The position numbers and the translations under genes are program-made. Below are positions 1 through 58,848 of a stretch of 58,848 bases of DNA, piece by piece. Source of the DNA: a virus (lineage: Duplodnaviria > Caudoviricetes); IMG/VR virus record IMGVR_UViG_3300045974_000247, positions 1 through 58,848 of that record; one strand, given 5' to 3'. The notes beneath the pieces are model-generated. The model did not search any database, had not been told where the DNA came from, and worked only from the letters and a program-made list of their open reading frames with translations. Position 1 is the first letter of the stretch. The number at the start of each line of letters is the position of its first letter.

Positions 1-127
1 CGTGGCAGGGACGCACCGTGTCGTGGTGAGACGCGCTTTCGCGTATTCGATAGCTCAGAAGCTCGGAAGGTCACCGCTGACCTTGCAGAGAATCGAAGAC
101 CGCCATTCGTACTCAGCCGCCTCTCGG
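1..127. repeat. Terminal direct repeat, left copy (probable circular-assembly overlap)
   Basis: 1-127 is identical to 58722-58848; 127 is a common maximum assembler k-mer. Confidence 0.9.
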
Positions 128-550
128 GCATCGCGCGTTCGCGCTTGGCTTCGTACCGTCGGCATCGCGCTAACGCGCGTGGCTCCGGCTCCGCTTGCTT
201 CGTTCGCCTGTCCTACAAGAGGAACCCTACTCCCATCCCCGGCGCAGAGTAAAGCGTTTGCCCGGCAGGTAGAAGAAGGATAGGGCAGTTCCGTTCTGGC
301 AGACATCCTGGCAGCGGAACCGCCAGCTGGCGACTCAGGAATCTGCCAAAACTCGAGCCTCTAGCAGTAGCAGGTCGGGAGGCTCGGCTGCGGCCGCAGC
401 TGGCAGATTCCTGAGGAGTTCTGTGCCAAACCAAGTCCAGGGTCGATTTCCACGTCCCTTGCGGGACTTTGTTTCATGAGTAACGGCGCCAGGTTGGCAA
501 CCCCCGAAAGGGTACCATTCTCTATTAGCCGCTATACGGGCTAATAGAAC
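1..550 (-). ncRNA. Putative long structured leader/ncRNA, 5' part (continues through 58440-58721)
   Basis: No credible ORF; dense inverted repeats, e.g. ctcaggaatctgcca/tggcagattcctgag (~334-415), aaggtca-ccgc-tgacctt, gtccc-GCAA-gggac on the minus strand, tctattagcc/ggctaataga. Confidence 0.45.
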
Positions 551-882
551 GGACATGGCAAAAACTGGTCATACCGAGAGTCGAAATCCGGAGCACTTTT
601 TTGGCAGGTTTTCACGATTCACGCAAAACGTGGCTGCTGCTTTCTGGCGCCTGTCACTGAAAGCGTGCGAAAATGCCATCGTTTTGTTTTGCCTTTGTGG
701 TCGAAGTATGGCCGGAACCCATCACTTTGGCTGCGATCAACCAGGGCTCAACACAACCGCTGGCGCCGCTCGGGGCCCCCGGGAGGCTCGGGGGCCTAGG
801 GCCCGGCACAGCGAAACAGGCCTGCCCAGCTGTGCCGGGCCCCCGGGAGGCTCGGGAGGAGGGACCCCCGGGAGCGTCAGCC

Positions 883-2274
883 TCAGCGGGCCCGGGAGCG
901 TGGGCGCTTGGACCCTGCCGCGCGCTCCCGGAGAGCTTCCAGCAGGGCCCTCTGCGTGCGGTCCTTCTTGGCGACCCCTCGCATCACGACCTCATCGACG
1001 GTCCCGCGCGCGACCACGTGGTGGACCACTACGCGCTCCCGCTGACCCTGCCGCCAGATGCGTCGGATGAGCTGCTCGTAGTTCTCCAGGTCCCACGTGA
1101 GCGAGTGCCAGATGACGGCGGCTCCGACCCCCTGGAGGTTGAGCCCGTGTGCGACGCTCTGCGGCTGCGCGAGGAGGACCGGGAGCCCGCCAGCGTTCCA
1201 GGCATCCTCGACCTCACGCGCCTTCTTCGCAGTCACCCCGCCCCCAAGGTACGGTGCGCCGGGGAAGGCGCGCTGGAGCCGCTCCAGGTCGTGCTGGAAC
1301 TCATACGCGATGAGCGCGGGCTTCCCCGACAGCTCCTCGACCAGCTCCTGGACTGCCTCGGTCTTGGCCTCGTGGAGGTGGTGGAGGGTGCGGACCTTCG
1401 GGTCGGACCCGTACAGCCCGCCGTTCGCAATCTGCCGGCACTTGATCGTCGCAGCCCCCACGTTGGCGGCGGTGACGATGCCCTCCTCGACCTGCGCCAG
1501 CAGGAGCTTCTCCATCTGGTCGTATGCCTTGCGCGCCTCGGGGGGCAGCTCGACCTCGACCGTGTTGTTGATCAGCGGCGGCAGCTTGAGGTAGTCCTCC
1601 CCCCGCATGCGGAGGACGAGGGGCCGCAGCCGTGCGTAGATGCGCTCAGCGGCATCCTCCTTCGGCACCCAGGTGTAGCCCCCGTACCCGGTGGCGTCGA
1701 AGTAGGCGTTGCGGAAGTGGGTGATGTAGGAGCCGAGCGCGTTGCCCTGGTCGAGGAGGTAGACCTGCCCGAAGAGGTCCATGAGCCCGTTGGGCGCTGG
1801 GCTCCCGGTGAGGATGACCCGCCGGTTGAACTCGTGGAGGTGCGGCCGGAGCGCCTTGAACCGCTGCGTGTTGGTGTGCTTGAACCGGGTGGACTCGTCT
1901 ACCACGAGCATGTCCCACTTGATGCGGAGCCGCTTTGCCTCCTTGAAGAGCCAGCCAAGCCCCTCGGGGTTGATCACGCTGACGTGGTGGGGCTGCTCCA
2001 GGAGCATCTGCTTGTCCTTGCCGTGGAGGACGTGGACGTTGAGCCCCCGGAACTCGTCCCACTTCTGCGCCTCGCGCGGCCACGTGCTCTCAGCGGGCCG
2101 GAGCGGGGCGATGACCAGCATCCTCTCGGCCATCCCCGATTCCAGCAGGACCTTGAACGTGGCGTAGGTGATGCTGGTCTTCCCCAGGCCCGGGTCGAGG
2201 AACAGCCCCCCACAGGCCTGGCCCAGGAGGAACTTGATGGCCTGGTCCTGGTATGCGTGCGGTTGGTACTGCAT
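883..2274 (-). CDS. SNF2-family (SF2) DNA helicase
   Basis: Walker A variant DPGLGKT, VVDES, LTGSP, HGLNLQ, QLIRRIWRQGQ motif VI. Confidence 0.93.
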   Translation of the reverse strand: MQYQPHAYQDQAIKFLLGQACGGLFLDPGLGKTSITYATFKVLLESGMAERMLVIAPLRPAESTWPREAQKWDEFRGLNVHVLHGKDKQMLLEQPHHVSVINPEGLGWLFKEAKRLRIKWDMLVVDESTRFKHTNTQRFKALRPHLHEFNRRVILTGSPAPNGLMDLFGQVYLLDQGNALGSYITHFRNAYFDATGYGGYTWVPKEDAAERIYARLRPLVLRMRGEDYLKLPPLINNTVEVELPPEARKAYDQMEKLLLAQVEEGIVTAANVGAATIKCRQIANGGLYGSDPKVRTLHHLHEAKTEAVQELVEELSGKPALIAYEFQHDLERLQRAFPGAPYLGGGVTAKKAREVEDAWNAGGLPVLLAQPQSVAHGLNLQGVGAAVIWHSLTWDLENYEQLIRRIWRQGQRERVVVHHVVARGTVDEVVMRGVAKKDRTQRALLEALRERAAGSKRPRSRAR

Positions 2275-2670
2275 TCAGATGCCCTCCCCGTCCACACCAT
2301 CGGTGAACCGGAGGACGCACGCGACCCGGATGCCCCGGTCGAGGACGATGGGACGCCTGGTGCCGGTGAACGCCTTGAACTCCTCCTTGAGCCGCTCCAG
2401 CTGCTGGATGTTGAGGGGCCGCTCCGACTCCAGCACGACCTGGTCGAAGGGCCCCAGCTCCAGGACCCTCGGGGTGATGACAATGGGCGGCTCGCTGTCC
2501 GGGTACTTGCCCCGGAGCACCACGGTCATCGCGCGCTCCCGCTCCAGCTCCTCCCGGAGCCGCGCGTTGGCGGCGGCTTGGACTGCAGCTTGCTCGAGCG
2601 CCTCATCCATCCGCATCTGGATGAGGGTCAGGCGCGCGAGGCAGTTGGGGCACAACAGCGTGTCGGTCAC
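2275..2670 (-). CDS. Hypothetical protein (CPNC, coiled coil)
   Basis: Abuts the helicase; GTG start after GAGG; genome-like codon usage. Confidence 0.65.
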   Translation of the reverse strand: MTDTLLCPNCLARLTLIQMRMDEALEQAAVQAAANARLREELERERAMTVVLRGKYPDSEPPIVITPRVLELGPFDQVVLESERPLNIQQLERLKEEFKAFTGTRRPIVLDRGIRVACVLRFTDGVDGEGI

Positions 2671-2888
2671 GGGGACACCTCGGGGGGTCGGTGGTAGTTG
2701 TTGCGGCAGATGTCGGAGCAGAACCTGCGCCGGGTGCCGCGCACGCGCCGGTCCCGGAGGAAGGTTCCACCGCAGTGGACGCACGTGGCGGCGTAGTTCC
2801 CGGGCTGGATGTTGAACAGCTCCTTGACCGGGAGGCTCATGCGCTCCTCGTGCGCCTGGAGGCAGCGCAGCTCGATGCGTCGGGCCAT
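2667..2888 (-). CDS. Small Zn-finger-like protein
   Basis: CVHCG...RRFCSDICR motif; overlaps the downstream start. Confidence 0.6.
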   Translation of the reverse strand: MARRIELRCLQAHEERMSLPVKELFNIQPGNYAATCVHCGGTFLRDRRVRGTRRRFCSDICRNNYHRPPEVSP

Positions 2889-2893
2889 GTCCC

Positions 2894-3232
2894 TCACAGC
2901 ACGTCCCCCAGGTCGAACTTCGTGGGCGCGTACCGCACCCGGTCCGCGATGATGGCGTCGATGATGTTGCGACCCGTGGCCTTGTCGTCGATGACGAACA
3001 CCCACTGGCCCAGGTCGATGAGCTGGTTGATCATCATCTTCTGGAGGGGCGTGGGCTCCTCCCCCACGCGCTTGTACTCGATGAGGAAGTGCTTGCCGTT
3101 GGGCGCCCAGAACCCTCGGTCAGGCCAGCTCCTCGCGCCCAGCCCGTTCATCTTCCGGACCAAGCAGCCGAGCCGCTTGGCGTACTGGACGTTGTCGTTC
3201 TCAGCGATGCGCTCCGGCTTAGTCTTGGCCAT
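2894..3232 (-). CDS. VRR-NUC domain nuclease
   Basis: E..E..V, WPDR, IEYK, PTPLQ motifs; usual partner of the SNF2 helicase in phages. Confidence 0.88.
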   Translation of the reverse strand: MAKTKPERIAENDNVQYAKRLGCLVRKMNGLGARSWPDRGFWAPNGKHFLIEYKRVGEEPTPLQKMMINQLIDLGQWVFVIDDKATGRNIIDAIIADRVRYAPTKFDLGDVL

Positions 3233-3336
3233 GTCGGTCCCTGTTGTGTCGGTCGAGCGCCCGGAGGAGGAGACACCCCGTCAGGGCAGAGATGGAGAGG
3301 CTGAGTAGCCCAGCCGCTGCGAGGCGCAGTATGGAG

Positions 3337-3618
3337 CTAATCATCGAACACCCGCAGGGACGGTCCCATGCCGAGCGACTTGACCTCCAGCTGCTCGAAG
3401 GACACGACCTCGATGCGGCTCCCGTTGACGAGCCGGATGACGTGCCGCGCTCGGGTGGAGCCCCCGACGTGCTGGGCGAAGACCCAGAGCGCGTCAGCGT
3501 TCCATCGGACCCGCTGCACGTTGGGCACGACGATGAGCACCACGGCCCCAGCGGTCTCAGAGGCCATGAGGATGGCCCTGAGGCAGGCTCGGGTTGTCTT
3601 CCCCGTGGACCGGCTCAT
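3337..3618 (-). CDS. Hypothetical protein with degenerate P-loop-like start
   Basis: RSTGKTT near the N-terminus; coupled to the upstream ORF. Confidence 0.55.
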   Translation of the reverse strand: MSRSTGKTTRACLRAILMASETAGAVVLIVVPNVQRVRWNADALWVFAQHVGGSTRARHVIRLVNGSRIEVVSFEQLEVKSLGMGPSLRVFDD

Positions 3619-3845
3619 CGCGCCCCTCCCTTCCGGCGGGGAGGGCGCGCAGAGGGCTGAGGCAGCGGCTCCTCAAGCGTCGGCCACGCGGGGTTGGGGG
3701 GCGTGTACCCGATCAAGAGGGTCGCGCGGCAGGCGCTGTTGGAGCACTCCCAGCGACCCTTCGGGTTGGTGGAGGTTAGTGTCCCCGCCACGCAGATTGG
3801 ACAGGTGTAGCTCGCGCTCACGACAAGACCCCTTCCTTGATCCAA
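3615..3845 (-). CDS. Small Zn-ribbon protein
   Basis: CPIC...WECSNSAC; start uncertain (may be GTG near 3821). Confidence 0.5.
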   Translation of the reverse strand: MDQGRGLVVSASYTCPICVAGTLTSTNPKGRWECSNSACRATLLIGYTPPNPAWPTLEEPLPQPSARPPRRKGGAR

Positions 3846-4219
3846 CGGGTGACCTTCTGGTCCTCCTCCTTCAGGTGGTACTCTACCCAGGCGCGCAGCC
3901 GCTTGACGAACTCACGCAGCTCCGGCTCCCCGCCCCGCGCCACCCGCGCGGAGTAGTGCGTCCAGACATCGAAGAAGCGCACATGCTCGCGTCGATGCTC
4001 TGCGAGAGCACTCTCTGGGTAGCGGACCTGCTCCATGAGCAGCTCCTCGTCCAGGAAGTGGGTGGTGAAGTGGGACCGGAGCCTGAGCATGGCCACCGCG
4101 ATGCGCCCATCGCTCAGTACCTCGGTCCCTTCCAAGTCGTCCAACACGTCACAGACAGTCTCGTGCTGCCGGTCGATGAGCCCGTTGCCGGTCCTCAGCG
4201 CCTCATTCCATGTCCGCAT
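3818..4219 (-). CDS. Bacteriohemerythrin
   Basis: W......TG...IDRQH, HF.DEE.LM...YP, EH..EH, W...H...ED: complete di-iron ligand pattern. Confidence 0.9.
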   Translation of the reverse strand: MRTWNEALRTGNGLIDRQHETVCDVLDDLEGTEVLSDGRIAVAMLRLRSHFTTHFLDEELLMEQVRYPESALAEHRREHVRFFDVWTHYSARVARGGEPELREFVKRLRAWVEYHLKEEDQKVTRWIKEGVLS

Positions 4220-4247
4220 CCCACGTCCCCCTCCCCCGCCCGTACTG

Positions 4248-4994
4248 CTAGAATCGGCAGGGGCCTCCGTTGTTGGCGCTGAACGCGCACCAGCGACAGT
4301 AGTTGCCGGGGCGCGGGTTGAACTTCGGGTCGTTCATCATCTTGGACGCGCGCTTGTCGAGCGCCTTCTGCGCCTTGGGCAGCTGCACCAGCGTCAACTC
4401 CCCGGCCTCAGAGGTCACCGTCTGCCCCTGGTCCGTGAAGATGAGCTCTGCGCGGGTCCGCTCCCCGAAGCCAGCCGTGAGCGAGGCCACCGCGTAGCCC
4501 ATCAGCTGGTCGTCGAAGACCTCTCCGGGACGCAGTTTCCCGGTCTTCCAGTCCTTCACCACGGACAGCTTCGGCTCGGGGAAGTGGAGCACGTCCACCT
4601 TGAAGCGCACGTACACGTCCTCATCGGTCCAGCCGGTCATCTTCCAGTCCTGAGTGAACGCCAGGTTGAGCTCCACGCGGACCTTCTGCTTGGCGTAGTC
4701 GGCCTTGAGCAGGCGCAGCTCCTTGGCGACCTTCTTGAGGTCGGGGTGGATGGTCTTCCGCTGCCCCCGGATGTACATCTCTGCCTCCTCGTGGAGGGCT
4801 GTCCCCCGGGCGAGCGCGGGAGCCTCGGGGGGCTTCTCACGACCGCACTTGTCGCAGGTGCCCCGCTTGTTCAGCCGCCCCTTGAAGCACTTGGGGCAGA
4901 GGTAGTCCACGCGCTCATACTTGGTCCTGCGTGGGCACTCCTCATACGCCTTCAGCGCGGAGGGGGACCACGTCTTGATGACCGACGACATCAC
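4248..4994 (-). CDS. PD-(D/E)XK (Cas4/RecB-like) exonuclease
   Basis: WSPS....YEECP, RGTALH, VD...DWKTGK, C-terminal CRWC...C. Confidence 0.88.
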   Translation of the reverse strand: MMSSVIKTWSPSALKAYEECPRRTKYERVDYLCPKCFKGRLNKRGTCDKCGREKPPEAPALARGTALHEEAEMYIRGQRKTIHPDLKKVAKELRLLKADYAKQKVRVELNLAFTQDWKMTGWTDEDVYVRFKVDVLHFPEPKLSVVKDWKTGKLRPGEVFDDQLMGYAVASLTAGFGERTRAELIFTDQGQTVTSEAGELTLVQLPKAQKALDKRASKMMNDPKFNPRPGNYCRWCAFSANNGGPCRF

Positions 4995-6823
4995 TTGACT
5001 CCTTTCAGGTCGCCCCAGTTGGGGCCTTGCTTCGCATCGCTGAGCATCGGGACATCGAACTCAACAGACTCCATCGCCTCCCGGAGCACCTCCAGCTCCT
5101 TCGCCATGGCGCCCTTGGGCGCGCTGACGTTGATCTCGTCGTGGACCGTGACCAAGAACCGGCCATCCTTCCGCACCTCGTTGTACCTGATGACTGCCTC
5201 CTTGGTGCAGTCGGCAGCGGAGCCCTGGATGAGGTAGTTGAGGAGCTTGTACTCAAACGTCTGCTCCCGTCCGTTCCGTACCACCGGCTCCTCGCAGTAG
5301 TACAGCCTCCCGCCCCACGTGCGGATGGGCTTGTCCTCCTTGGCCTTCCTCCGGAGCCCCTGCTCCAGGGCCCGGAGCCCGGGGATGGCCGAGCGCTGAG
5401 CGCCCTTGAGGAGCCGCGCCTGCTCGACCGAGACACCGAGCGCCTTGCTCAGCTTCCCCATCCCCATCCCGTAGAGCATGCCGAAGTTCAGGACCTTGAC
5501 CGCGCGACGCTCCAGCTGCGTGCCGGTGATGCCGGCGATGGACGCCTTCACGAAGTCATGCACGTCCATGCGCGGCTCCTCCCGGTACGCAGTCAGGAGG
5601 AGGTCATCCTCAAAGTGCGCCAGGATGCGCAGCTCCTGCTGGTTGTAGTCCCGGTGACCGAACAGCTGACCCTTGTCGGGGAGGCAGTAGCGTCGGATGA
5701 GCGGCAGCTCGGGGAGCTTCGGGACCTTCGGGTGGCTGTACCCGTCACCCTTGTCGTCCCACGTCTTGGGGATGTTCTGGAAGTTGGGTGAGCAACTCAG
5801 TCGCCCAGTCCGCGCGCCAGCGCCTCCCCCCGCGTGGTAGCTCTGCCGCACCTGGTTCCAGTTGGTGAAGATGTAGCCGTTGTTCCTCTCGGCCACCTCG
5901 GCCCACGGCCCCATGAACGTGCGCATCGCAGTGCCGAGCCGGGAGCGGTACTGAAGCGCCACGTACACGCGCGGGTCCTTGAACATCCCCACGCTCAGGT
6001 TCTCCTTCGCCACAGAGGGCTTCCCCGTGTCCGTGGGCACGAAGTCCTCCTCAGCGACGTGCCCCCGCTCGATGAGCGCTGCGGCCAGCGACTGGTCGGA
6101 GTCGATGTTGATGTCTCCGAGCTGCTTGGCGAGCCAGCGGTCCACGCTCGCCTGGGCGAGGGTGTACGCCTTGATGTCGGCCTGGAGCTTGGGCAGGTCC
6201 ACGCGGATGCCCTCCGACTCGTTGGCGAGGAGGACGGGGAGCAGCCGACGCTCCCGGTCATACGCCAGCTTCATCTCCCGGTCCAGCTTGGGGTACAGCT
6301 TGTCGTGGAGCTTCTTCGTGCGGACCACGTCACCGATGGCGTAGGGCCCGACGATGGACGCGGGGACCTTGGAGATGAACGCTCCGGCTCCCTTGCGCCC
6401 CTTCGTGAGCCCGTGGGCGATGACCCAGTCGGCCACGGCATCCTGCTCCTCGGGCTCCATGCCGAGCAGCCGCTTGGCGCTGGGCTTCAACGAGAGGTTG
6501 GGGGCGTGGGGGTCGGAGAGGAACAGGCTGAACATCGTGTCGTGGAACCGCTCCCAGGGCGGGAGCGCGAGCCCCAGATGGGCCTGGGCCACATCGAGGT
6601 CGAACTTGGCGTTGTGGAAGAGCAGCTCCTTGGTCTTCCAGAGGTCGGTGAGCACGCGCTTGGCCTTGGCCAGCGTCGTGTTGTTGCCCTCGGGGTGCCC
6701 CCACGCCAGGTACACCGGCTTGCGGCCGGGCTCCAGGATGGCGACTCCAACGGGCTTGGGAGGGTAGTTGGGACGCCCCTCGATGGCGTCGGTCTCAAAG
6801 TCCACGACGGTCACAGCGGCCAT
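4991..6823 (-). CDS. polA: DNA polymerase family A with 3'-5' exonuclease
   Basis: DFET exo I, HNAKFD exo II, TGRLS..PNFQNIP, DYNQQELRILAH, K.LNFG.LYG, NYLIQGSAAD, VHDE. Confidence 0.95.
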   Translation of the reverse strand: MAAVTVVDFETDAIEGRPNYPPKPVGVAILEPGRKPVYLAWGHPEGNNTTLAKAKRVLTDLWKTKELLFHNAKFDLDVAQAHLGLALPPWERFHDTMFSLFLSDPHAPNLSLKPSAKRLLGMEPEEQDAVADWVIAHGLTKGRKGAGAFISKVPASIVGPYAIGDVVRTKKLHDKLYPKLDREMKLAYDRERRLLPVLLANESEGIRVDLPKLQADIKAYTLAQASVDRWLAKQLGDINIDSDQSLAAALIERGHVAEEDFVPTDTGKPSVAKENLSVGMFKDPRVYVALQYRSRLGTAMRTFMGPWAEVAERNNGYIFTNWNQVRQSYHAGGGAGARTGRLSCSPNFQNIPKTWDDKGDGYSHPKVPKLPELPLIRRYCLPDKGQLFGHRDYNQQELRILAHFEDDLLLTAYREEPRMDVHDFVKASIAGITGTQLERRAVKVLNFGMLYGMGMGKLSKALGVSVEQARLLKGAQRSAIPGLRALEQGLRRKAKEDKPIRTWGGRLYYCEEPVVRNGREQTFEYKLLNYLIQGSAADCTKEAVIRYNEVRKDGRFLVTVHDEINVSAPKGAMAKELEVLREAMESVEFDVPMLSDAKQGPNWGDLKGVK

Positions 6824-7056
6824 GACTCTCCTCGCAGCAGTGCGGCGCGCTCTTGCTGGGCGCGCAGTTTGGTGTAGCGTCCGTGGAGGCGGCTGATGAA
6901 GAACACCCGTCGCCTCCCGCGCATCTCCGACTGCAACAGCTGGCGGAGCGCGGTCAGCGACAGGGTCTTCAACTGCTCGTTGAGCAGCTCCTGGGAAGCG
7001 AGGAGCTGCTCAACGGCCACCGCCGACAGGAGGAACTTGTCGGTGGTGGCGGGCAC
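6811..7056 (-). CDS. Hypothetical protein
   Basis: Coupled between the SSB-like gene and the polymerase. Confidence 0.6.
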   Translation of the reverse strand: MPATTDKFLLSAVAVEQLLASQELLNEQLKTLSLTALRQLLQSEMRGRRRVFFISRLHGRYTKLRAQQERAALLRGESWPL

Positions 7057-7904
7057 TAGAACTTGCCCTTGCCCTTCTTCGCGGCGGGGGCCTCGGCAGC
7101 GGGCTCCTCGTCAGCCTGCTTGTACTCCTGCTCGATGGCGGCCATGGCCTCCTCGCGCCGCGCCTCCAGCCCGTCGATGAGCACGGGGCTGATCGGCTCG
7201 CGCGCGGCCCAGGTCACCTTGAACTGGGACCGCTTGTCCTCGACGCAGTCCACGTCGCTGATGGTGAGGAGCGGGTGGAGGCTGTTGCGGGCGAGGTTGG
7301 TCACGTAGTCGGTCCAGCCCTTGCCGCTCGTCACCGGGAGCTTGAGCAGCGCCCAGCTGGCCGTCTTGACCGTGTCCTCGTCCACGTCGGCGGGGAGCGC
7401 GAGGAGGCGCCACCGGTTCTGGCACGCCTTGCCCTTGCTGTCCTCCTTGGCTCGAGCACCCAGCAGCTCCTCGGAGGCAGCGGACCCCCACTGGTTCATC
7501 GGGCACTCGGAGCAGCTCTCCGGCTTCGTGTACTCCCCGCTGGGCTTGCCCTTGGCGTTGAGGACCGGGTAGCCCTTGGCCGACTCGTGCGGCCGCATCT
7601 CCCCCTCCGTGCGCCCGAAGGCGTAGCAGCACGGCGGCGTGCGGTCGTCGGGGTCGAACTTCTTGTCGTACATGTCGTTCTCACGGATGTAGTCGAGGAC
7701 GATGAGGCCCACGGGCCCGTCCACCTTCGTGCCGCCGAGCTTCATCCCCGTCTGGGAGAAGCTCATCACGTTGGACGTGGGCGGTGGCACCGACTCCGCT
7801 GCCATCTGGGCATACTTGGCATACTTCTCCTCCAGGCTCCCCGGCTTGGCGAGAGTCTTGCCCTTGACGGGCACTGCGAGCGCTGCGGTTTTCTTGGTCG
7901 CCAT
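7056..7904 (-). CDS. Putative ssDNA-binding/annealing protein
   Basis: P.CYA, CSECPMNQWGS, GKACQN..RL pattern typical of proteins upstream of PolA in such siphoviruses; acidic/basic tail. Confidence 0.65.
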   Translation of the reverse strand: MATKKTAALAVPVKGKTLAKPGSLEEKYAKYAQMAAESVPPPTSNVMSFSQTGMKLGGTKVDGPVGLIVLDYIRENDMYDKKFDPDDRTPPCCYAFGRTEGEMRPHESAKGYPVLNAKGKPSGEYTKPESCSECPMNQWGSAASEELLGARAKEDSKGKACQNRWRLLALPADVDEDTVKTASWALLKLPVTSGKGWTDYVTNLARNSLHPLLTISDVDCVEDKRSQFKVTWAAREPISPVLIDGLEARREEAMAAIEQEYKQADEEPAAEAPAAKKGKGKF

Positions 7905-7907
7905 GTG

Positions 7908-8138
7908 TTACTCCTTCTCGTGGTACTCGATGGATGCGATGATGCTGCGTTCCGGGAGGCGAGAGCTGTCCCCCCGGCTGTTGATGAACGACGGGGGGAG
8001 GACATCGACGTTGAGCAGCTCAGCTCCCTCCTCCCGGAGGAGCGCGAGGGCACCGTTGATGGCGTCCTCCAGCTGCTTGATGTCCGCTCCCTCGACCAGC
8101 TTGATCTTGTACTTGGCCATGATCTTGTACCACCCCAT
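7908..8138 (-). CDS. Hypothetical protein
   Basis: In-operon ORF. Confidence 0.55.
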   Translation of the reverse strand: MGWYKIMAKYKIKLVEGADIKQLEDAINGALALLREEGAELLNVDVLPPSFINSRGDSSRLPERSIIASIEYHEKE

Positions 8139-8140
8139 GG

Positions 8141-8527
8141 TTACTTGCTCGCCTTGGTGAGGGAGAGCGTGGTGATGACGAACGGCACGACCCCAGGCAC
8201 GGTCTTCTTCGCGTCCAGCCGCTCCCGGAACGCAGCGTCATTCACGCGGCGCTGGAGCAAGTCGAACGCACCTGTCTTCTTGATGTACTTCTGCAACGCC
8301 TCCCAGTCCTCCACCTGGGCCACGGTGCGCGGGGAGAGGCTGGCTGTGGCGACCTTCCCCCGGGCCCCGTCGATGTTGACCTTGTCGAAGCTGTTCATGA
8401 TGTGCTGCTTCAGCGCTGCCTCCTCCTCCTTGAGCTTCTCGACCTCCTTGTCCAGCTCCAGCCGCTCGGAGCGCATCTTGTACGCGAGGTCGATGCACGC
8501 GCCCAGCGTCTTGGGGTACTTGATCAC
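8141..8527 (-). CDS. Conserved replication-region coiled-coil protein (Gam/Gp157-like)
   Basis: Coiled coil followed by V.DWEAL..YI....FDLLQRRV...VPGV. Confidence 0.65.
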   Translation of the reverse strand: MIKYPKTLGACIDLAYKMRSERLELDKEVEKLKEEEAALKQHIMNSFDKVNIDGARGKVATASLSPRTVAQVEDWEALQKYIKKTGAFDLLQRRVNDAAFRERLDAKKTVPGVVPFVITTLSLTKASK

Positions 8528-8745
8528 AGCTCGACCCGCTTGGGGAAGTTGAAGCTGAGCTGCTCGGGCACGCGCTCCGCAGCGAGCCCCTGGGCCGACT
8601 TGAGGACCTCGACCAGACGCACGTCCAGGACCGACTTGAGGCTGGCCTTGGCGACGTCAAACGTCACCTCGGCGCAGGCGCGCTCCTCCTCCCAGATGAC
8701 GTGCGTTTCCTCCCGCGTGACGACCACGACTGCGAAGCGACTCAT
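8524..8745 (-). CDS. Hypothetical protein
   Basis: Strong RBS GAGGAGGAG; first gene after the putative promoter. Confidence 0.65.
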   Translation of the reverse strand: MSRFAVVVVTREETHVIWEEERACAEVTFDVAKASLKSVLDVRLVEVLKSAQGLAAERVPEQLSFNFPKRVEL

Positions 8746-8787
8746 GGCACTCCTCCTCGGTTGGTTGACATCTTGGCAACGACTCCG

Positions 8788-8815
8788 ATTGTACGCTCAC
8801 GCGGGCCAGCGTAAA
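8788..8815 (-). promoter_or_regulatory. Putative sigma70-type promoter
   Basis: Minus strand TTTACG-N16-TACAAT in an intergenic gap. Confidence 0.55.
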
Positions 8816-8832
8816 GGCAGGACTTTGCCGCG

Positions 8833-9069
8833 TTACTTGGGCACCCCGGGTGGCTGAGCGATGCGCTCTGTCTCGACCTCGATGAGCTTGTCGAGGAAGT
8901 GCCGCGCCTTGGCGAGGTCCTGGAGCCCGTTCTTCTTGCGCCAGCGGTACACGTACTTGATGATCTGGGCCTCCATGTACGGGATGTCGTTGGCGAGCAC
9001 GAAGTCCCAGTGCTGAATCTCGGAGCGGTAGTGCTCCCCGCCCACCTGCGTCTCATTGGCCTTGCTCAT
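8833..9069 (-). CDS. DUF3310/SaV-like protein (T7 gp1.7-like nucleotide kinase family)
   Basis: QVGGEHY...IIKYVYRWRKKNGLQDLAKARHFL. Confidence 0.85.
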   Translation of the reverse strand: MSKANETQVGGEHYRSEIQHWDFVLANDIPYMEAQIIKYVYRWRKKNGLQDLAKARHFLDKLIEVETERIAQPPGVPK

Positions 9070-9593
9070 CGGAGCTTCTCCCATTCGTAGCTGAGGTGTT
9101 CGCACATCGACGACACTCCCTTGATCTCGTGCCGCGCGGTCTCCAGGTAGCTCAGCGCGCGGATGAACATGAGGCTGAGCCTCTGGGTCTTGTTCCCCAG
9201 CCGACGCTCCCGGAGGCACGTCCAGACCAGGTCGAGGGTGTCCGCTGTCTTGACGATGAACCCCTCCAGGTCCCCCAGCATCGGGATGGGGAGGGAGTGC
9301 TCAGCCACGAACACCTCCTCCATGCGGTCGAGGAGCGCGGACATGTCGGGGCTGGCGCGCTTGACGGGAGCGGGGATGTCCCCCGTGTCCACCTCTGGAG
9401 CGTCGTGGTAGAGGAGTGCCTGGAGCACGGGCCCGGGAGCTACCCCGTTGAGCTCGCACAGCTCCATCGCCACGACCATCGAGCCGTACACGTGGCGGGC
9501 GATGGTATGCTGCTCCACCGTCCGCACCGTGTGCAGGCGCACGAGGTCCCCGGCTTCGTACAGCGCCTCCATCCGCTTCAGGTTGGCCTTCAC
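9066..9593 (-). CDS. HD-domain nucleotide phosphohydrolase (YfbR-like)
   Basis: R.H...HTIARH, LYHDAPE..TGDIPAPVK, K.AD.LD. Confidence 0.87.
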   Translation of the reverse strand: MKANLKRMEALYEAGDLVRLHTVRTVEQHTIARHVYGSMVVAMELCELNGVAPGPVLQALLYHDAPEVDTGDIPAPVKRASPDMSALLDRMEEVFVAEHSLPIPMLGDLEGFIVKTADTLDLVWTCLRERRLGNKTQRLSLMFIRALSYLETARHEIKGVSSMCEHLSYEWEKLR

Positions 9594-10609
9594 TTGCCCC
9601 TCCTCGACAGCCACTCCAACGCTGCGTGACGCCAGTCGAGGGCAGAGCACTTGCGCGCCTCGGGTGGACTCTTGAGTCGCCAGGCTTTCCACAGGGGCTT
9701 GACGACGTTGTCCCAGAACGGGGTCTGGTACTCCTCCACGCTCGGGTCGATGCCGTGGTCCCAGAGCCGGAAGAAGTGCTGCATGTCGAGGTCCCACTCG
9801 ATGCAGTCCGCGGCCATCGGGTAGTGCGCGGCCAGCCCGCGCGTGTAGAGGTCCGGGGCAGGCTTGACGAGCTTGGTCGCTTCGTAGACCGGCCCCCGCT
9901 CCTTGACGCGGCTGTACACGGCTCCCCCGGGCCCCTCGGTGTAGACGTGGAGGCTGTCGCTGACCTGGGTGTAGGGCCCGACCTCGATGCCGAGCTTGTT
10001 GGCGATGTACTCCTGGAGCATCGACATGTGCACGACGTTGGCCCCGTAGGCTCCCCAGAGCATGTCGTTGGAGCGGTTGCACACCGTCATGTGCAGCTGG
10101 TCGGCCCGCACCTTGAAGTAGATGTGCGTGTTACAGGGCAGGTCCCGACTGGTCGAGCCGCCTGCCCCCTCCGAGCTGACTGCGTCCCCGTTGGGCGACC
10201 ACATCGCCACGACTGCGCGCCGGTCCTCCGGGTTCTTGAACAGCGCGTGGGTGACGTGGGTGAGCTGGTCGAACCCGAACCACTCGCGCCAGCGGAACCC
10301 GTAGGCTCCGTGGAACAGCTCCCCATCGTCGCTGAACTCCGCCATGCGGGGGTTGAAGACCCGGAGGAACCCGACATCGTTGCGCCCCTCCAGCATCCAG
10401 AGCCCCTCAAAGAAGTGGAAGAAGGGGTTGGCGTCGCGCTCCGGGGAGAACAGGACCCGTTCCTGGGGCCGGCTGTACACGGTGCTGACGGGCTGAGGGA
10501 CCTCGATGACTGGGCCTCCCCGGGAGTGACGCTCCACCCCCTGCTCGGCCATGAGCGCCATGCCGAGCGGGAGGGCTTCGTTGACGTTGCGGACGTTGAG
10601 GACGATCAC
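9590..10609 (-). CDS. Thymidylate synthase-family dUMP hydroxymethylase (YuA/M6-type)
   Basis: RDANPFFH, GAYG.RWR, DLPCN catalytic Cys, RSNDMLWGAYGANVVH (Asn, dUMP-specific), SLHVY. Confidence 0.88.
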   Translation of the reverse strand: MIVLNVRNVNEALPLGMALMAEQGVERHSRGGPVIEVPQPVSTVYSRPQERVLFSPERDANPFFHFFEGLWMLEGRNDVGFLRVFNPRMAEFSDDGELFHGAYGFRWREWFGFDQLTHVTHALFKNPEDRRAVVAMWSPNGDAVSSEGAGGSTSRDLPCNTHIYFKVRADQLHMTVCNRSNDMLWGAYGANVVHMSMLQEYIANKLGIEVGPYTQVSDSLHVYTEGPGGAVYSRVKERGPVYEATKLVKPAPDLYTRGLAAHYPMAADCIEWDLDMQHFFRLWDHGIDPSVEEYQTPFWDNVVKPLWKAWRLKSPPEARKCSALDWRHAALEWLSRRGK

Positions 10610-10830
10610 TTGGTCTCCTGGAACCCGTCGCACGAGCAGTCGCCGCACGGACCCTTGTCCCCGCGCTGGCGGGTGTAGAGGTGGTCCCCGAGCCGGTGGC
10701 CGCACTCGCACGTCTTCGCGCACGTCGCGCACTTGGCCGGGTCCTCGGCATGTGAGCACTGGACCGGCTCGACAACGGGGGTGGTCTGGGGCACTTCGGA
10801 CACTGCGTCAGGCTTCGTGATCTTGGCCAT
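10606..10830 (-). CDS. Small Cys/His-rich protein
   Basis: CECGH...H...C..C.C motif; RBS AGGAGGAG. Confidence 0.65.
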   Translation of the reverse strand: MAKITKPDAVSEVPQTTPVVEPVQCSHAEDPAKCATCAKTCECGHRLGDHLYTRQRGDKGPCGDCSCDGFQETK

Positions 10831-10832
10831 CG

Positions 10833-11693
10833 CTACTCCTCCTTGGGGGGTTGGTACTTGGAGCGTGGGCGACCCTCCCCGAGTCGCACGCGCTCATACT
10901 TGTCCAGCTCACACAGGCAGAACTGAATGTCGTGGGCAGTGAGCCGCCCTCCTCCTGGGAATGTCTCGAGCCACCGTGGCTGAATCTTCTCCAGCAGCGC
11001 GCGGATGAGGACCACGCCCTCGTCTGTACGGATGCCCTTCGTGAGCGGGGCCTTGCGCAGCCGGTTGAGTCCGCGCCTTGCCCCCGGGCCGGTGGGCGTC
11101 CAAGTCTCTGCGTCCTTCACCGGGTGGCGCCGCCAGAGCAAGTAGTCCTGGAGCACCTCCTTCGCCATGAACCCAGCGCCACCGAACCCGTGGACCTCCT
11201 GCATGACGTTGAAGCCAGCCTCCCACGTGTTGGTTGCCTCGATGGTGCTGACGATGTCCTCGGCACGGTCCCAGAGCGGCGCCAGGTACTCGTCCCCGAC
11301 CACCTTGTACTTGCGGACGCCTGCGTCACCGCCCCTGATCATGTACGCGCCGGTCCAGAACGTCTTGCCGGCGCGCTCGCACTCCTCCTCCGCGCGCTTG
11401 ATGCGAGCGGTCGAGTGAGCGCCCAACCAGCCGAGCGCGTCAGACGCCGCCACCGTGCCCGTGAAGCGTCGGAGCGCGCAGTTGTAGAGGGCCACGTGGA
11501 GCGGGGCCTCGCTGTACTTCTGATACACCTTGAGGAAGGCCTGCGTGGTCCGGTCGTGGACGCGCTGGACGTTGGTGAACTTGTACGTCTGGAGAATCTT
11601 GTCCTTGGTCCACGGCGCTGCCTGACCTCCGAGCTTGCGGAGCCGGATGTGCTCGCGCTCCTCGATGTACTTCCACAGTGGCTTGGCGTTCAC
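10833..11693 (-). CDS. aGPT-Pplase1 / 5-hmdU DNA kinase helical-domain family protein
   Basis: I.ERE.IR..K......PWT.D.IL..YKFTNV.R..DR.T, FWTGAY, G...FMA.E, GPGARRGL.RL, DIQF.LCE.DKY.R. Confidence 0.88.
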   Translation of the reverse strand: MNAKPLWKYIEEREHIRLRKLGGQAAPWTKDKILQTYKFTNVQRVHDRTTQAFLKVYQKYSEAPLHVALYNCALRRFTGTVAASDALGWLGAHSTARIKRAEEECERAGKTFWTGAYMIRGGDAGVRKYKVVGDEYLAPLWDRAEDIVSTIEATNTWEAGFNVMQEVHGFGGAGFMAKEVLQDYLLWRRHPVKDAETWTPTGPGARRGLNRLRKAPLTKGIRTDEGVVLIRALLEKIQPRWLETFPGGGRLTAHDIQFCLCELDKYERVRLGEGRPRSKYQPPKEE

Positions 11694-11809
11694 GTAAACG
11701 TCCTTTCTCTGGCTAGGGGGTTCCCCCTATAGTGGTTGGTGCGGGCAGGCGTAGTCTTTCTCAATGACCTACCAAGTTGTTGTCGCCGCCCAGAACAAGA
11801 ATGTTGTCG

Positions 11810-12208
11810 TCAAGGTTGACGCCTCCAACGAGCAGTCCGCGAAGGAGATTGCGAAGTGGCTGGTGGCGCACGCCCAGCACCTCCAGGCGCACGGGGTCCA
11901 AGCGAAGAAGTAGCGTCACGGGGCGCCAGAGCCTCCTTGAGCCTGAGCAGGGGTACGGCCAGGTGCGCTACCATACCAAGCGGGTCATCAGGAGCAGCCG
12001 CCACCTCGTCGAGCACGTCCTGTGCCGCCTTGCGCAGTCGAGTGATCTCCTTGCTCGCGCAGTCGCAGTCGGTGTATCCCTCGCAGCCCTCCTCGTGGTA
12101 GCTCTCGGGGGGCGCTCGGTTGCGCGCGTCCTCCACACACCCCGGACAGGGCAGCTCCGAGCCCGGGGGCCGGTTGTGTCGGGTGCAACCGTACACGCTC
12201 TTGGTCAC
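11810..12208 (-). CDS. Hypothetical Cys-rich protein
   Basis: GTG start overlapping the upstream stop. Confidence 0.5.
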   Translation of the reverse strand: MTKSVYGCTRHNRPPGSELPCPGCVEDARNRAPPESYHEEGCEGYTDCDCASKEITRLRKAAQDVLDEVAAAPDDPLGMVAHLAVPLLRLKEALAPRDATSSLGPRAPGGAGRAPPATSQSPSRTARWRRQP

Positions 12209-12402
12209 GACATCACCAGGGGCCGGTCCTTGCGGTCCGGGTGCTGCCCGCACCACTCGGTGGGGCGCGCGGGGATGCGGATGGGGATGATCTGGACCTG
12301 TCCCGCCCCCTGCGGGATGGGCATGGCTCCGGGAGGATTGAGGCGGCACTCGCCCCCGCCCAGCGGGTAGAAATACGGGCACGTCTGGCACGTTGCGGAC
12401 AT
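12205..12402 (-). CDS. Small Cys-rich protein
   Basis: CQTC.YF...GECR..PP...WCGQH, a common phage motif. Confidence 0.65.
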   Translation of the reverse strand: MSATCQTCPYFYPLGGGECRLNPPGAMPIPQGAGQVQIIPIRIPARPTEWCGQHPDRKDRPLVMS

Positions 12403-12405
12403 GGG

Positions 12406-13080
12406 CTACCTCGATGCGTCGAACATCGACGCGATGGTCTCATCGATCAGGCGTGCGTTCTCGCGCACGCAGTGCCCCCCAATGGGGCCCGGCATGTAGC
12501 TCAACCAGGGGCGCGCGACCTCGGGCCGTCCGAGCTTCGCATACCCCTCGTTGTACGTCTGGTTGGCGTGCGTGTAGACATCGGCCAGCTCCACGCCGTG
12601 CTTCTTCGCCTGCTCGGCGCACCAACGGTTGACGAGGATCATCATCCCGTACTGCGTCGTGTCCATGAGCTTCAGAAGCTCGGTGGTCTCGGTGTTGGGC
12701 ATGATGTACGTCGTCACCCCCACGACCTGGAACGCTCTGGCGATGTCCTCAGCCTCCGGGCCCGCGATGTACTTGACGAAGCTCTGGATGCCGCGCGCGA
12801 GATGCGGGTGCGTCCCCCTGATGGGGGAGTGGTTGACTCCGAGCTTGCGACACGTACCCACCGGCACCGACGAGTGGATGACGGTGCGGTGCGGCTGGAA
12901 CAACTCCTCGTACAAGCGGACCTGGTCGAGGAACTGCGGCCCGTGGTACGGGAAGCAGATGTGCAGCTCGTCAGCCAAACCCTTCACGCGGATGCCCTGC
13001 GGTGGGTCATGTAGCACCCCCCCAATGACTGCCTGGAGCCCCCGACCAACCTCCCCCGCTCCCACGATCACTCGCTCCAT
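12406..13080 (-). CDS. UDP-glucose/GDP-mannose dehydrogenase-family protein (compact)
   Basis: GAGEVG Rossmann motif, IHSSVPVGT, HSP, TE..KL..T, GPIGGHCV catalytic Cys; alternative start at 13134. Confidence 0.8.
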   Translation of the reverse strand: MERVIVGAGEVGRGLQAVIGGVLHDPPQGIRVKGLADELHICFPYHGPQFLDQVRLYEELFQPHRTVIHSSVPVGTCRKLGVNHSPIRGTHPHLARGIQSFVKYIAGPEAEDIARAFQVVGVTTYIMPNTETTELLKLMDTTQYGMMILVNRWCAEQAKKHGVELADVYTHANQTYNEGYAKLGRPEVARPWLSYMPGPIGGHCVRENARLIDETIASMFDASR

Positions 13081-13333
13081 GACCCACCCTTTCTCATCCG
13101 TGACCCTGCGTGTCTCTTCCGTGTGCAGACTCATGTCGCCTCCCAGCCTCCCGGTTCCCCCGGGGGCTTCGTTCGATTCCCGCCCCGACCCTCCGAGAGG
13201 CCCCTGGCGCTCAGCCTCCCCGCAGCCCCGTAGGCTGGCAGAGGGCCCTACCCCCTCCACGAGGACCCTCAGACCCCCATCCGCACAGTGCCTAGGGGCT
13301 CCGGATGGGGGGTAGACCCCCCCGAAAGGGTAC

Positions 13334-14278
13334 TCACGCCAGCCCGGTCTTCCGGTACCAGCGCACCGTCTCTCGCAGACCCTCTCGCAGGCCGACTCCT
13401 GCCTTGAGACCGAGCCACTTGCGAGCACGCGTCACGTCAGCCACCGAGAGCCTGATGTCTCCGCCACGGAATGCCTCCTGCTGGCACGACGTGCGCTTGC
13501 GCTCGCTGGGCGTCAGCTGCTCCTCCAAGAGGTCGGAGAGCTGGAGGAGCGTCGTGCCCTTGCCCATGGCGACGTTGTACACGAGGTTGACGTGCTTGGT
13601 CGTGGCGGCGAGGAGGTTGGCGGTGACCACGTTGCTGACGTACGTGAAGTCACGCGTGGTCGTCCCATCCCCATAGATCACATACGGCTCTCCCGACAGC
13701 ATCCTCTTGATCCACCGGGGGATGACGGCGCTGTAGCTGCCGTCCGGGTCCTGGCGCGGACCGTACACGTTGAAGTACCGCAGCCCGACCGTGTCCATGC
13801 CGTAGCTCTTGCCGTAGGCCAGCGCGTAGCTCTCCACGCACTGCTTGCTCGCTGCGTAGGGCGACAGCGGGGCCCCCACGATGACCTCGCGCCGCTTGTC
13901 CCCCAGAGCGTCCCCGTACACGGAGGAGCTGGAGGCGTACACGAAGCGGCGCACCCCGTGACGCCTGGCGTGCTCGAGAACTCGCAGGGTCCCATGCGTG
14001 TTGTTGAGGTGAGTCGTCATGGGGTCCGCGATGGACCGCGGCACGCTGGGGAGCGCGGCCTGGTGGAAGATGACGTCCACGCCGCTGAGGTCGAAGTTGT
14101 CGTGGACGATGTCGAGCGGGAGCACGTGGAGCCGCGCGTTGCCCTCGTGACCCGTGAGGTTCTCCTTCCTCCCGGTCGAGAGGTTGTCGATGACGATGAC
14201 CTCCCAGTCGCGCGCGAGGCAAGCGTCAACGAGATGCGACCCGATGAACCCGGCACCGCCGGTGATGGCGACCCTCAC
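13334..14278 (-). CDS. NAD-dependent UDP-HexNAc(A) 4-epimerase (WbpP/TviC-like SDR)
   Basis: TGGAGFIGSHL, HQAALPSVPRSI.DP, YASSSSVYG, SPYAASK, RYFNVYGPRQDP.GSYSAVIP.W. Confidence 0.9.
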   Translation of the reverse strand: MRVAITGGAGFIGSHLVDACLARDWEVIVIDNLSTGRKENLTGHEGNARLHVLPLDIVHDNFDLSGVDVIFHQAALPSVPRSIADPMTTHLNNTHGTLRVLEHARRHGVRRFVYASSSSVYGDALGDKRREVIVGAPLSPYAASKQCVESYALAYGKSYGMDTVGLRYFNVYGPRQDPDGSYSAVIPRWIKRMLSGEPYVIYGDGTTTRDFTYVSNVVTANLLAATTKHVNLVYNVAMGKGTTLLQLSDLLEEQLTPSERKRTSCQQEAFRGGDIRLSVADVTRARKWLGLKAGVGLREGLRETVRWYRKTGLA

Positions 14279-16491: not shown

Positions 16492-16498
16492 GGCACTC

Positions 16499-19150: not shown

Positions 19151-19185
19151 ATGGCCTGAACCTGAGCGTATGGTTGCTCTTGTCA

Positions 19186-19578: not shown

Positions 19579-19589
19579 TGGTACTCTCA

Positions 19590-58164: not shown

Positions 58165-58202
58165 GGCGTTGCTCCTTGGTAGGTAGGGAAGGGGTTGAAC
58201 GA

Positions 58203-58421
58203 CTAGGCGTTGCGGATGTTGTAGAAGACGCCGCAGGTCGCGCAGCGGATGACGTTGCCGGAGCCCAGCTGTCCGGACTGGGCGATGTCCTCGCCGCAGC
58301 CTTCGCACTGATTCGACTCGACCATCCGGAAGGTCTTGCCGTTGGTCCAGAAGTACAGCGCCTCTCCTCCGACGCGGATGTACAGCTCAGCGGGCTTGCT
58401 CGTGTCGATCATCTTGGCCAT
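58203..58421 (-). CDS. Small Zn-ribbon protein, first early gene
   Basis: CEGCG...CATCG; RBS AGGAG. Confidence 0.6.
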   Translation of the reverse strand: MAKMIDTSKPAELYIRVGGEALYFWTNGKTFRMVESNQCEGCGEDIAQSGQLGSGNVIRCATCGVFYNIRNA

Positions 58422-58439
58422 GTTCGCTCCTGGTAGGTT

Positions 58440-58721
58440 GAACGGGTTTGCTTCGGGACTTCGATCAGCCCACCCTCCGAGAGGAGAGGAGGCTGACCGA
58501 AGGGGCGAGTGATCTCACCCCAGGGGTCTGGCGCGGCTGAACTCCCTTGCGAGGAGTCTGACTGGCGCCCAAGGTCTTGCGGGTCAACGGTCACTCCGTT
58601 GAAGCCCTGCTCTGGATCATCCTCCGTAGCTCTGTTGCGAACCGCTGACTGGTCGGCTGAGCTTGACGCTCACCGTTTCAGAAGTCCATACGAGGATGCG
58701 AGCAACCTTGCCTGCCGCTCT
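58440..58721 (-). ncRNA. Putative long structured leader/ncRNA, 3' part
   Basis: Minus-strand hairpins such as acuccuc-GCAA-gggagu, ugagc-gucaa-gcuca, ucaacgg-aguga-ccguuga; no credible ORF. Confidence 0.45.
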
Positions 58722-58848
58722 CGTGGCAGGGACGCACCGTGTCGTGGTGAGACGCGCTTTCGCGTATTCGATAGCTCAGAAGCTCGGAAGGTCACCGCTG
58801 ACCTTGCAGAGAATCGAAGACCGCCATTCGTACTCAGCCGCCTCTCGG
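58722..58848. repeat. Terminal direct repeat, right copy
   Basis: Identical to 1-127. Confidence 0.9.

Follow-up and report, generated by a model that had tools for sequence, protein, structure and literature searches.

A flank-conditional footprint of restriction-site avoidance in an uncultured pond phage genome points to a probable thymine modification at TG steps

The window analysed here is the whole of IMG/VR virus record IMGVR_UViG_3300045974_000247 (Duplodnaviria; Caudoviricetes), a complete viral genome record of 58,848 bp with a GC content of 66.0%. Throughout it, the tetranucleotide GATC survives almost only with a T on its 5' side or an A on its 3' side, that is, where the site adjoins a T in a TG step on one of the strands. 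A sequence-only reading of this DNA had estimated roughly a hundred GATC sites, essentially all flanked in this way; the estimate was too low, the exact count being 122, while the flank rule stood, with a 5' T or a 3' A at 121 of the 122 sites. The example positions it gave (1443, 7190, 12636, 20165, 28269 and 47096) are all TGATC or GATCA, and the one exception it reported, CGATCC at 44511–44516 on the + strand, is the only one by exact count as well. The GATC observation is confirmed and is stronger than first stated. GATC itself, which had been treated as special, proved to be one of at least six sites under the same rule. Probably, a bulky modified T at TG steps shields adjoining sites from host Type II restriction, and sites lacking the shield have been purged; this explanation had been proposed from the GATC sites, and those of its parts that can be tested on sequence held, which lends it support.

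Flank dependence was evaluated against 1000 synonymous-codon shuffles that keep the protein sequence and codon usage. These replaced a maximal-order Markov expectation, which is ill suited to testing flanks, since the pentamers on which it is conditioned are themselves already depleted. The shuffles predicted 270.7 GATC sites in total, of which 140.4 (standard deviation (sd) 7.5) would be T/A-flanked and 130.3 (sd 8.5) would take the unshielded form VGATCB (V, any base except T; B, any base except A). The observed numbers were 121 flanked sites (z = −2.5, mildly low) and a single VGATCB (z = −15; 0 of 1000 shuffles come close), and the suspected VGATCB depletion therefore persists under a codon-aware null. 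The flanked fraction was 0.992 against a shuffle maximum of 0.586, and the binomial probability of at least 121 flanked sites among 122 is 2e-33 at p = 0.519. By hexamer, the flanked sites comprised AGATCA (26), TGATCT (23), CGATCA (20), TGATCA (18), TGATCG (13), GGATCA (11) and TGATCC (10). Loss of non-palindromic contexts, for which palindrome avoidance had been said to offer no explanation, is real: with both strands counted, AGATCG/CGATCT occurs 0 times against 25.6 expected and CGATCC/GGATCG once against 41.8. GATC is also the most depleted tetramer of the genome (244 observed vs. 541 expected on both strands, z = −12.8). The 127-bp terminal repeat of the record contains no GATC, so that no site was counted twice.

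A single T flank is sufficient for survival. Sites with no T flank numbered 1 against 129.7 expected, those with one numbered 103 against 124.4, and those with two 18 against 16.1; sorted by the pair of 5' neighbours, one per strand, the observed and expected counts were 49 and 38.7 for AT, 33 and 49.7 for CT, 21 and 36.0 for GT, and 18 and 16.1 for TT. These near-expected counts in the single-T classes indicate that one T on one strand is enough and that an A flank is no substitute for it. Codon choice carries the same signature, as the replacement of ATC by ATT in exposed contexts had suggested. At the 41 Ile codons following a G where ATC would give VGATCB, ATC was never used (ATT 38, ATA 3), and at the 105 in a T/A-flanked context it was used 100 times (ATT 5); Ile codons not preceded by G were ATC in 455 cases, ATT in 24 and ATA in 4. 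Similarly, Asp codons before a C in an unshielded context were GAC in 152 of 153 cases and GAT in one. The sole unshielded GATC lies in CAC GAT CCG (His-Asp-Pro) within a tail gene of 1504 aa, where a synonymous GAC would abolish it.

The flank split was then run on all 4- and 6-bp palindromes, with a detailed set of 15 sites compared with 300 shuffles; at all 15, 0 of 300 shuffles reached the observed unflanked count. At least 13 different palindromes are depleted in the window. Five G-starting hexamers followed the GATC pattern (observed/expected, T-flanked and then unflanked): GAGCTC (12/15.0; 0/33.2), GACGTC (11/11.1; 1/25.6), GGCGCC (26/24.3; 4/43.2), GCCGGC (18/13.9; 3/33.3) and GGTACC (5/7.4; 0/7.2), all with T-flanked counts no more than 1.6 sd from expectation. 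Across the six rescued sites, GATC included, observed/expected ratios were 0.68–1.28 with a T flank and 0.00–0.09 without. When the eight avoided G-starting hexamers were pooled, 76 T-flanked copies were found against 86.0 expected, and 12 unflanked copies against 185.3. The six avoided C-starting hexamers showed no rescue (T-flanked 12 vs. 77.8 expected; unflanked 24 vs. 156.5), as illustrated by CCGCGG (2/22.8; 1/37.3), CGGCCG (1/16.9; 10/37.1), CGTACG (1/9.8; 1/13.6) and CGATCG (0/10.1; 0/12.2). A 5' T thus rescues sites that start with G and not those that start with C, where it would form a TC step, which defines the protective unit as T followed by G, in agreement with the shield first proposed. 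The T inside GATC, GAGCTC and GACGTC stands in a TC step and evidently gives no protection. GTCGAC had also been noted as rare, and the genome indeed holds one copy, at 37675–37680 and preceded by T, where about 25 are expected.

Several minor features of these site sets were recorded. At position −2, before the protecting T of single-T-protected sites of the six palindromes, G was scarcer than expected (30 vs. 50.7) and T more frequent (56 vs. 37.6; chi-square p = 4e-4). A few unflanked survivors have a TG one position off, in numbers too small to test: two of three GCCGGC sites are followed by TG (10468 and 14300), and two of four GGCGCC sites have a TG immediately before them, its G occupying position −1 (3102 and 51365). 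GATC followed by T was not rescued. AT-rich tetramers fell far below the codon-shuffle null (TTAA 2 vs. 21, AATT 1 vs. 13, TATA 4 vs. 23, ATAT 6 vs. 25), as did A-starting palindromes with a T flank; these deficits may arise artificially, since the shuffles do not preserve codon-junction dinucleotides, or they may reflect real avoidance.

We compared the window with eight known phages that carry the helical domain of 5-hydroxymethyl-deoxyuridine (5-hmdU) DNA kinase (PF18723), using 50 of the 58.7 kb of YuA, the first 100 kb of PhiW-14 and SH-Ab 15599, and also M6, PaMx11, FP1, TM26 and Sonora. The pooled words were picked by an unflanked ratio below 0.5, which biases the unflanked values downward, so that the informative contrasts are the T-flanked values and the equally chosen C-starting sets. 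For G-starting sites, T-flanked and unflanked observed/expected counts were 32/116 and 1/212 in YuA, 43/131 and 9/249 in M6, 33/88 and 5/163 in PaMx11, 40/117 and 2/222 in Bordetella phage FP1, 69/69 and 2/110 in Rhizobium phage TM26, 26/31 and 4/55 in Stenotrophomonas phage Sonora, 127/137 and 36/169 in PhiW-14, and 94/81 and 6/51 in SH-Ab 15599. C-starting avoided sites were similarly low in the T-flanked and unflanked classes of all eight. GCCGGC gave a clear single-site example, with T-flanked and unflanked counts of 6 and 0 in M6 (49 unflanked expected), 14 and 0 in FP1 (51), 38 and 0 in TM26 (30), and 15 and 1 in PhiW-14 (33). Five phages in which a search found no PF18723 served as controls: no T-flank rescue was seen in D3112 (0/15 and 2/28), phiKMV (8/35 and 9/68), B3 (0/11 and 0/18) or Dagobah (0/9 and 1/27), and YO103_6 had too few avoided sites to be informative.

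In three kinase-bearing Microbacterium phages, a 5' T rescued C-starting sites instead, with T-flanked and unflanked counts of 46/66 and 15/120 in Neferthena, 20/38 and 3/44 in Pajaza, and 47/47 and 15/73 in GreenIvy. Among individual sites, T-flanked and unflanked copies numbered 13 and 0 for CAGCTG, 5 and 0 as well as 7 and 0 for CCGCGG, and 6 and 0 for CGGCCG; GCCGGC and GGCGCC were not rescued. This pattern suggests a TC-step specificity in these phages, and it means that the footprint is no generic property of T flanks. A separate observation concerns TGCA, which would set two modified T three bp apart on opposite strands: it was depleted in YuA (20 observed vs. 105 expected), M6 (32 vs. 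128), FP1 (13 vs. 130), TM26 (40 vs. 112), Sonora (26 vs. 108), the metagenomic relative G001 introduced below (56 vs. 111) and the window (111 vs. 158); no such depletion was seen in the kinase-less controls or in PaMx11, PhiW-14 and SH-Ab 15599.

Two viral contigs, G001 and G002, encode homologues of the window's kinase-domain protein with 53–54% identity. G001 (51.7 kb, 88% complete) is syntenic with the window, and their proteins are 30–57% identical; DNA identity is 64–68% in most aligned blocks and up to 81% in three short ones, low enough that the G001 sites were not simply inherited together with those of the window. It carries the footprint nonetheless: T-flanked and unflanked counts were 160 and 1 for GATC (131.8 and 111.2 expected), 8 and 0 for GACGTC (8 and 14), 9 and 0 for GGTACC (7 and 7), and 36 and 4 for GAGCTC (18 and 25). 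The comparison of related phages with and without the modification genes, suggested in the sequence-only reading, thus came out as that reading would have it, with the footprint present in G001 and site avoidance regardless of flank in the kinase-less phages. The −2 bias described above was absent from G001 (p = 1.0). ThyA-like (53% identity), kinase-domain (54%) and PIG-L-like (47%) genes are common to the window and G001, where the PIG-L-like gene adjoins the kinase-domain gene. A tblastn search of G001 recovered no homologue of the window's glycosyltransferase, epimerase or 203-aa protein, which points to the genes that both share, and most simply to the kinase-domain gene among them, as the source of the TG rule. 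G002, a complete genome of 75 kb, has only the kinase-domain homologue (53% identity) in common with the window; the neighbouring gene is ThyX, and nothing ThyA-like was found. GATC is over-represented there (782 observed vs. 522 expected), and few or no copies of GAGCTC, CTCGAG, TGGCCA and CAGCTG are present, whatever the flank. Relatives of the large terminase in the viral collection are fragments of 4–20 kb, and three of 4–7.5 kb, with terminases 52–63% identical to that of the window, showed a partial T/A-flank bias of GATC (flanked/unflanked 15/3 in L004, 22/9 in L010 and 30/7 in L018); no such bias was seen in L002, L003, L005–L007 or L015.

The putative modification genes of the window form a cluster at approximately 9.0–16.5 kb on the − strand. 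A ThyA-family (thymidylate-synthase-family) protein is encoded at 9590–10759 (PF00303, E = 1.3e-19; phrog_5131, E = 5e-110) and is presumed to be a deoxyuridine monophosphate hydroxymethylase supplying 5-hmdUMP, the profile matches fitting hydroxymethylase and methylase activity alike. At 10833–11693 lies the 286-aa 5-hmdU DNA kinase helical-domain protein (PF18723, E = 2.4e-34; 119.4 bits against a cut-off of 25, profile positions 7–277 of 281), which is 27–32% identical to its homologues in M6, YuA, PaMx11, PhiW-14 and SH-Ab 15599 and is the candidate reader of the TG context; kinase-bearing phage records number 126. The cluster also holds an NAD-dependent nucleotide-sugar epimerase/dehydratase at 13334–14572 (PF01370, E = 1.6e-65), a PIG-L/LmbE-like deacetylase-family protein at 14634–15215 (PF02585, E = 4.4e-7; 30.9 bits, cut-off 28.2), and a DNA-base glycosyltransferase-like protein at 15661–16527 (PF20691, E = 1.3e-6; phrog_842, E = 1.1e-28). 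The epimerase is nearest to TviC-type UDP-GlcNAcA 4-epimerase, with a match to NF011728 (E = 8.7e-74) that lies under the cut-off of that model; because its domain begins at about residue 100, translation may really start further downstream. The glycosyltransferase, of the TET-associated glycosyltransferase/beta-glucosyl-HMC alpha-glucosyltransferase type, matches PF20691 at 29.0 bits (cut-off 27.5) and over profile positions 1–94 of 205 only. Given epimerase, PIG-L-like and glycosyltransferase genes and no match to the amino-acid:DNA transferase family PF18724, the adduct may be a sugar-based one, so far undescribed on thymine. In this lineage, sugar-nucleotide enzymes appear to accompany the kinase-domain protein where the known transferase would be expected, which makes the product a candidate new thymine adduct.

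The remaining members of the cluster are less clearly assigned. The 203-aa protein at 12406–13017 (−; called as 203-aa P0001) belongs to a large uncharacterised family with 1709 homologues and no Pfam family; one source labels some of these homologues UDP-N-acetyl-D-mannosaminuronate dehydrogenase, yet they are only about 225 aa long. An HD-domain ORF (open reading frame) with the motif LLYHDAPE lies at approximately 9066–9650 (−), the coordinates being approximate because it overlaps the long ORF call of a neighbouring gene; by its translation, read by eye, it resembles the YfbR-like deoxynucleotidase gp18 of YuA, which matches PF12917. Two ORFs were considered as the missing P-loop kinase and rejected: the product of 11810–12391 (−) is of low complexity and rich in Pro, Arg and Gly, and that of 8833–9219 (−) matches 'nucleotide kinase' PHROGs only in its C-terminal part and looks, by eye, more like a small accessory domain. 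A family A DNA polymerase with a 3'–5' exonuclease domain is encoded at 4991–6823 (−; PF00476, E = 3.7e-56; PF01612); other T-replacing phages likewise have their own. Among the replication and modification genes, a 282-aa Pam3_Gp34-like protein at 7056–7904 (−) resembles YuA gp05 (PF23977, E = 5.6e-74). This family is common to the window, G001 (40% identity) and YuA, with further coordinates in L028 (3642–4481); for the window protein the name comes from Atlas clusters only (18–35% of members), and it has no Pfam match.

Completeness of the genome record is based on an exact 127-bp direct terminal repeat (1–127 and 58722–58848). Gene calling by GC3 (GC content at third codon positions) gave 69 ORFs in the window, and a Pfam scan covered 29 of them. 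Structural genes on the + strand include the small and large terminases, portal, ClpP-like protease, major capsid, tape measure and baseplate hub; the − strand carries replication and nucleotide-metabolism genes, namely SNF2 helicase, PD-(D/E)XK nuclease, family A polymerase and primase. An HNH endonuclease and one further endonuclease are also encoded. A megablast comparison of 12 kb with 50,697 phage records gave no DNA match to a cultured phage, and the closest cultured-phage match of the major capsid protein has 36.5% identity. The sequence is present as contigs in two public pond metagenome runs, marking it as an uncultured pond phage; one of these runs, examined over positions 1–20000, yielded short, low-depth and mostly identical pieces and no usable strain variation.

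Alongside the observed conditional depletion, its limit to T and to G-starting sites, the codon signature, the recurrence in relatives and the absence from kinase-less phages, we infer that the phage DNA is modified, that TG reflects the specificity of an enzyme, that the kinase-domain protein sets this specificity, and that host Type II enzymes were the selecting agents. Judged by gene family, the ThyA-like enzyme and the phage polymerase would bring 5-hmdU into the DNA. After replication, the kinase-domain protein would mark those 5-hmdU residues that precede G, as the footprint and the published biochemistry of its homologues suggest, and downstream enzymes would build a bulky group, perhaps a sugar derivative, mainly on T followed by G. 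A modified T abutting a Type II site would then block the host enzyme, one such T on one strand being enough. For /GATC cutters of the MboI/Sau3AI type, the flanking T is the nucleotide 5' of the scissile bond. Shielded sites would be under little selection and stay near their neutral frequency; sites without an adjacent TG step, whose internal T stands in a TC or TA step, would be lost through synonymous changes over evolutionary time.

Several observations weigh against this explanation. Palindromes with an internal TG remain depleted, namely CTGCAG (9 vs. 28; ratio 0.32), GTGCAC (7 vs. 16.5; 0.42), GCATGC (7 vs. 14.7; 0.48) and TGCA (ratio 0.70), which misfits the simplest model, since such sites would be spared if every TG were modified and blocked everything. 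TGTCGAC is not rescued in the window (1 vs. 5.7 expected), although it is in PaMx11 (14 vs. 12.4). Together with the −2 bias, these cases suggest that enzymes differ in sensitivity, that modification is incomplete in some wider contexts, or that closely placed adducts carry a cost of their own. G002 shows no T-flank rescue despite its 53%-identical kinase-domain homologue and avoids the TG-containing TGGCCA and CAGCTG, so that a kinase-domain homologue alone is insufficient for the footprint. No match to PF18724 was found in six frames of the window at E ≤ 0.1 or in the 29 of 69 ORFs scanned against Pfam, with gp10 of YuA, used as a positive control, matching at E = 3e-48. The P-loop kinase domain PF18748 was likewise undetected in six-frame searches (E ≤ 0.1) of the window, G001 and G002, and none of the six frames of the window contains a strict Walker-A motif (G....GK[ST]). 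In M6, FP1, Sonora and TM26 the domain sits immediately upstream of the helical domain, and PaMx11 gives a weak match; PF18748 also went undetected in PhiW-14 and SH-Ab 15599, both of which carry the pathway. Finally, the identity of the selecting restriction enzymes rests on the host, and four matches of the large terminase in bacterial genomes (44–52% identity; Undibacterium, Hymenobacter, Lysobacterales and Pseudomonadales) are too scattered to name one.

An alternative keeps the TG shield and assigns the context to a glycosyltransferase or another enzyme acting on 5-hmdU, with a sugar on the hydroxymethyl group as the protective moiety. The cluster offers the parts for it in the TAGT-like glycosyltransferase, the TviC-like epimerase and the PIG-L-like protein, and the failure to find PF18724 and PF18748 points the same way; we still regard it as unlikely, since G001 displays the footprint without tblastn-detectable glycosyltransferase, epimerase or 203-aa homologues, and since the TG footprint follows the kinase domain through eight phages whose downstream enzymes differ. 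It is also conceivable, although improbable in our view, that something other than a classical host Type II enzyme did the purging: a methyl-dependent enzyme of the DpnI kind, which would cut once Dam had methylated the site unless a modified T next to it kept the methylase off, or a phage nuclease that degrades host DNA and whose sites the phage itself avoids. The HNH, PD-(D/E)XK and further endonucleases of the phage would suit the latter, and the selecting enzyme is indistinguishable from sequence alone. Nevertheless, depletion of at least 13 palindromes is what many host restriction-modification systems usually leave behind, the sites avoided by kinase-less phages of other hosts form overlapping sets, the methyl-dependent route could account for GATC only, and either version would require a shield specific to TG all the same. 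Codon, codon-pair or dinucleotide bias, or host enzymes requiring V...B flanks, acting on unmodified DNA, can hardly be credited: the shuffle null does lose codon-junction dinucleotides, and the TTAA deficit may partly be an artefact of this, but the split between flanked and unflanked ratios holds over six sites, ATC makes up 95% of G-ATY contexts that are shielded and 0% of those that are not, the flank effect is missing at C-starting sites and in kinase-less high-GC phages, and a common flank requirement of six unrelated enzymes is implausible.

The explanation by shielding at TG steps may extend beyond this phage. A wider reading, towards which we lean a little less than away, is that flank-conditional avoidance is a general sequence-only readout of thymine hypermodification, of its dinucleotide (TG in phages of proteobacteria, apparently TC in Microbacterium phages) and of host restriction specificities, and that the pond lineage installs at TG steps a thymine modification of new chemistry, probably with a sugar, and does so without the known amino-acid:DNA transferase. 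If this is true, the dinucleotide specificity of hypermodification could be read from a genome without an isolate, mass spectrometry or native-DNA sequencing, which would be useful for the many modification clusters known only from metagenomes. It would also guide the choice of restriction enzymes and sequencing strategies for phage DNA that is hard to sequence, and predict the host defences escaped. The footprint would then mean that one modified base, outside the site and on one strand, has protected well enough over evolutionary time to lift selection.

Glucosylated hydroxymethyl-pyrimidines are known from T-even phages (glucosyl-5-hydroxymethylcytosine) and as base J. The window resembles these systems in having a gene predicted to encode a DNA-base-type glycosyltransferase; neither modification is known to be TG-specific. 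The closer comparison is with phages of the 5-hmdU/5-hydroxymethyluracil DNA kinase pathway (M6, YuA and PaMx11 of Pseudomonas, ViI of Salmonella, PhiW-14 of Delftia and SH-Ab 15599 of Acinetobacter), with which the window shares a ThyA-family gene, a PF18723 protein, its own family A polymerase and, as far as their genomes were tested, conditional site avoidance. Modification at TG is a further likeness, supported by digests in SH-Ab 15599, where a 2026 paper places diaminopropyl-thymine predominantly at TG (PMC13458397), proposed for M6, ViI and PhiW-14, for which a TG/TC preference was inferred from digests (Flodman et al. 2019, PMC6449724), and suggested for the window by its footprint. 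DNA of phage F8 is likewise described as resistant to enzymes with TG in their sites (2025 preprint, 10.1101/2025.03.31.646159). In the account of PMC8989533, 'up to half of thymidines' are modified in known phages, a range that includes the 38% of all T in the window that are followed by G. On the word of these sources, hypermodification of thymidine at TG, with restriction blocked as a result, is already part of known biology (PMC6449724, PMC13458397). The window differs from the pathway phages in its kinase-domain protein, only 27–32% identical to theirs, in having no detected PF18724 or PF18748, and in a cluster that holds an epimerase, a PIG-L-like protein and a glycosyltransferase.

Avoidance of restriction sites in phage genomes is, as described for example in PMC6286503, also a known phenomenon, and the window conforms to it in its depletion of short Type II-like palindromes against a codon-aware null; it differs in that avoidance hinges on a base outside the site. 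A full-text search of the literature, supplements excluded, found no link between a flanking base and restriction-site avoidance in hypermodified phages. The nearest precedent concerns PhiW-14, whose DNA resists NaeI and NgoMIV and for which an outside T, as in tGCCGGC, is mentioned as possibly adding protection and as a possible partial explanation (PMC6449724). The same outside-T idea applies here, and GCCGGC is rescued both in the window (18 T-flanked, 3 not) and in PhiW-14 (15 and 1). What served there as a partial explanation of a digest appears here as a near-absolute evolutionary rule over six sites and many genomes, and it is this flank-conditional, sequence-only footprint, its generality and the unusual gene set of the lineage that appear to be new.

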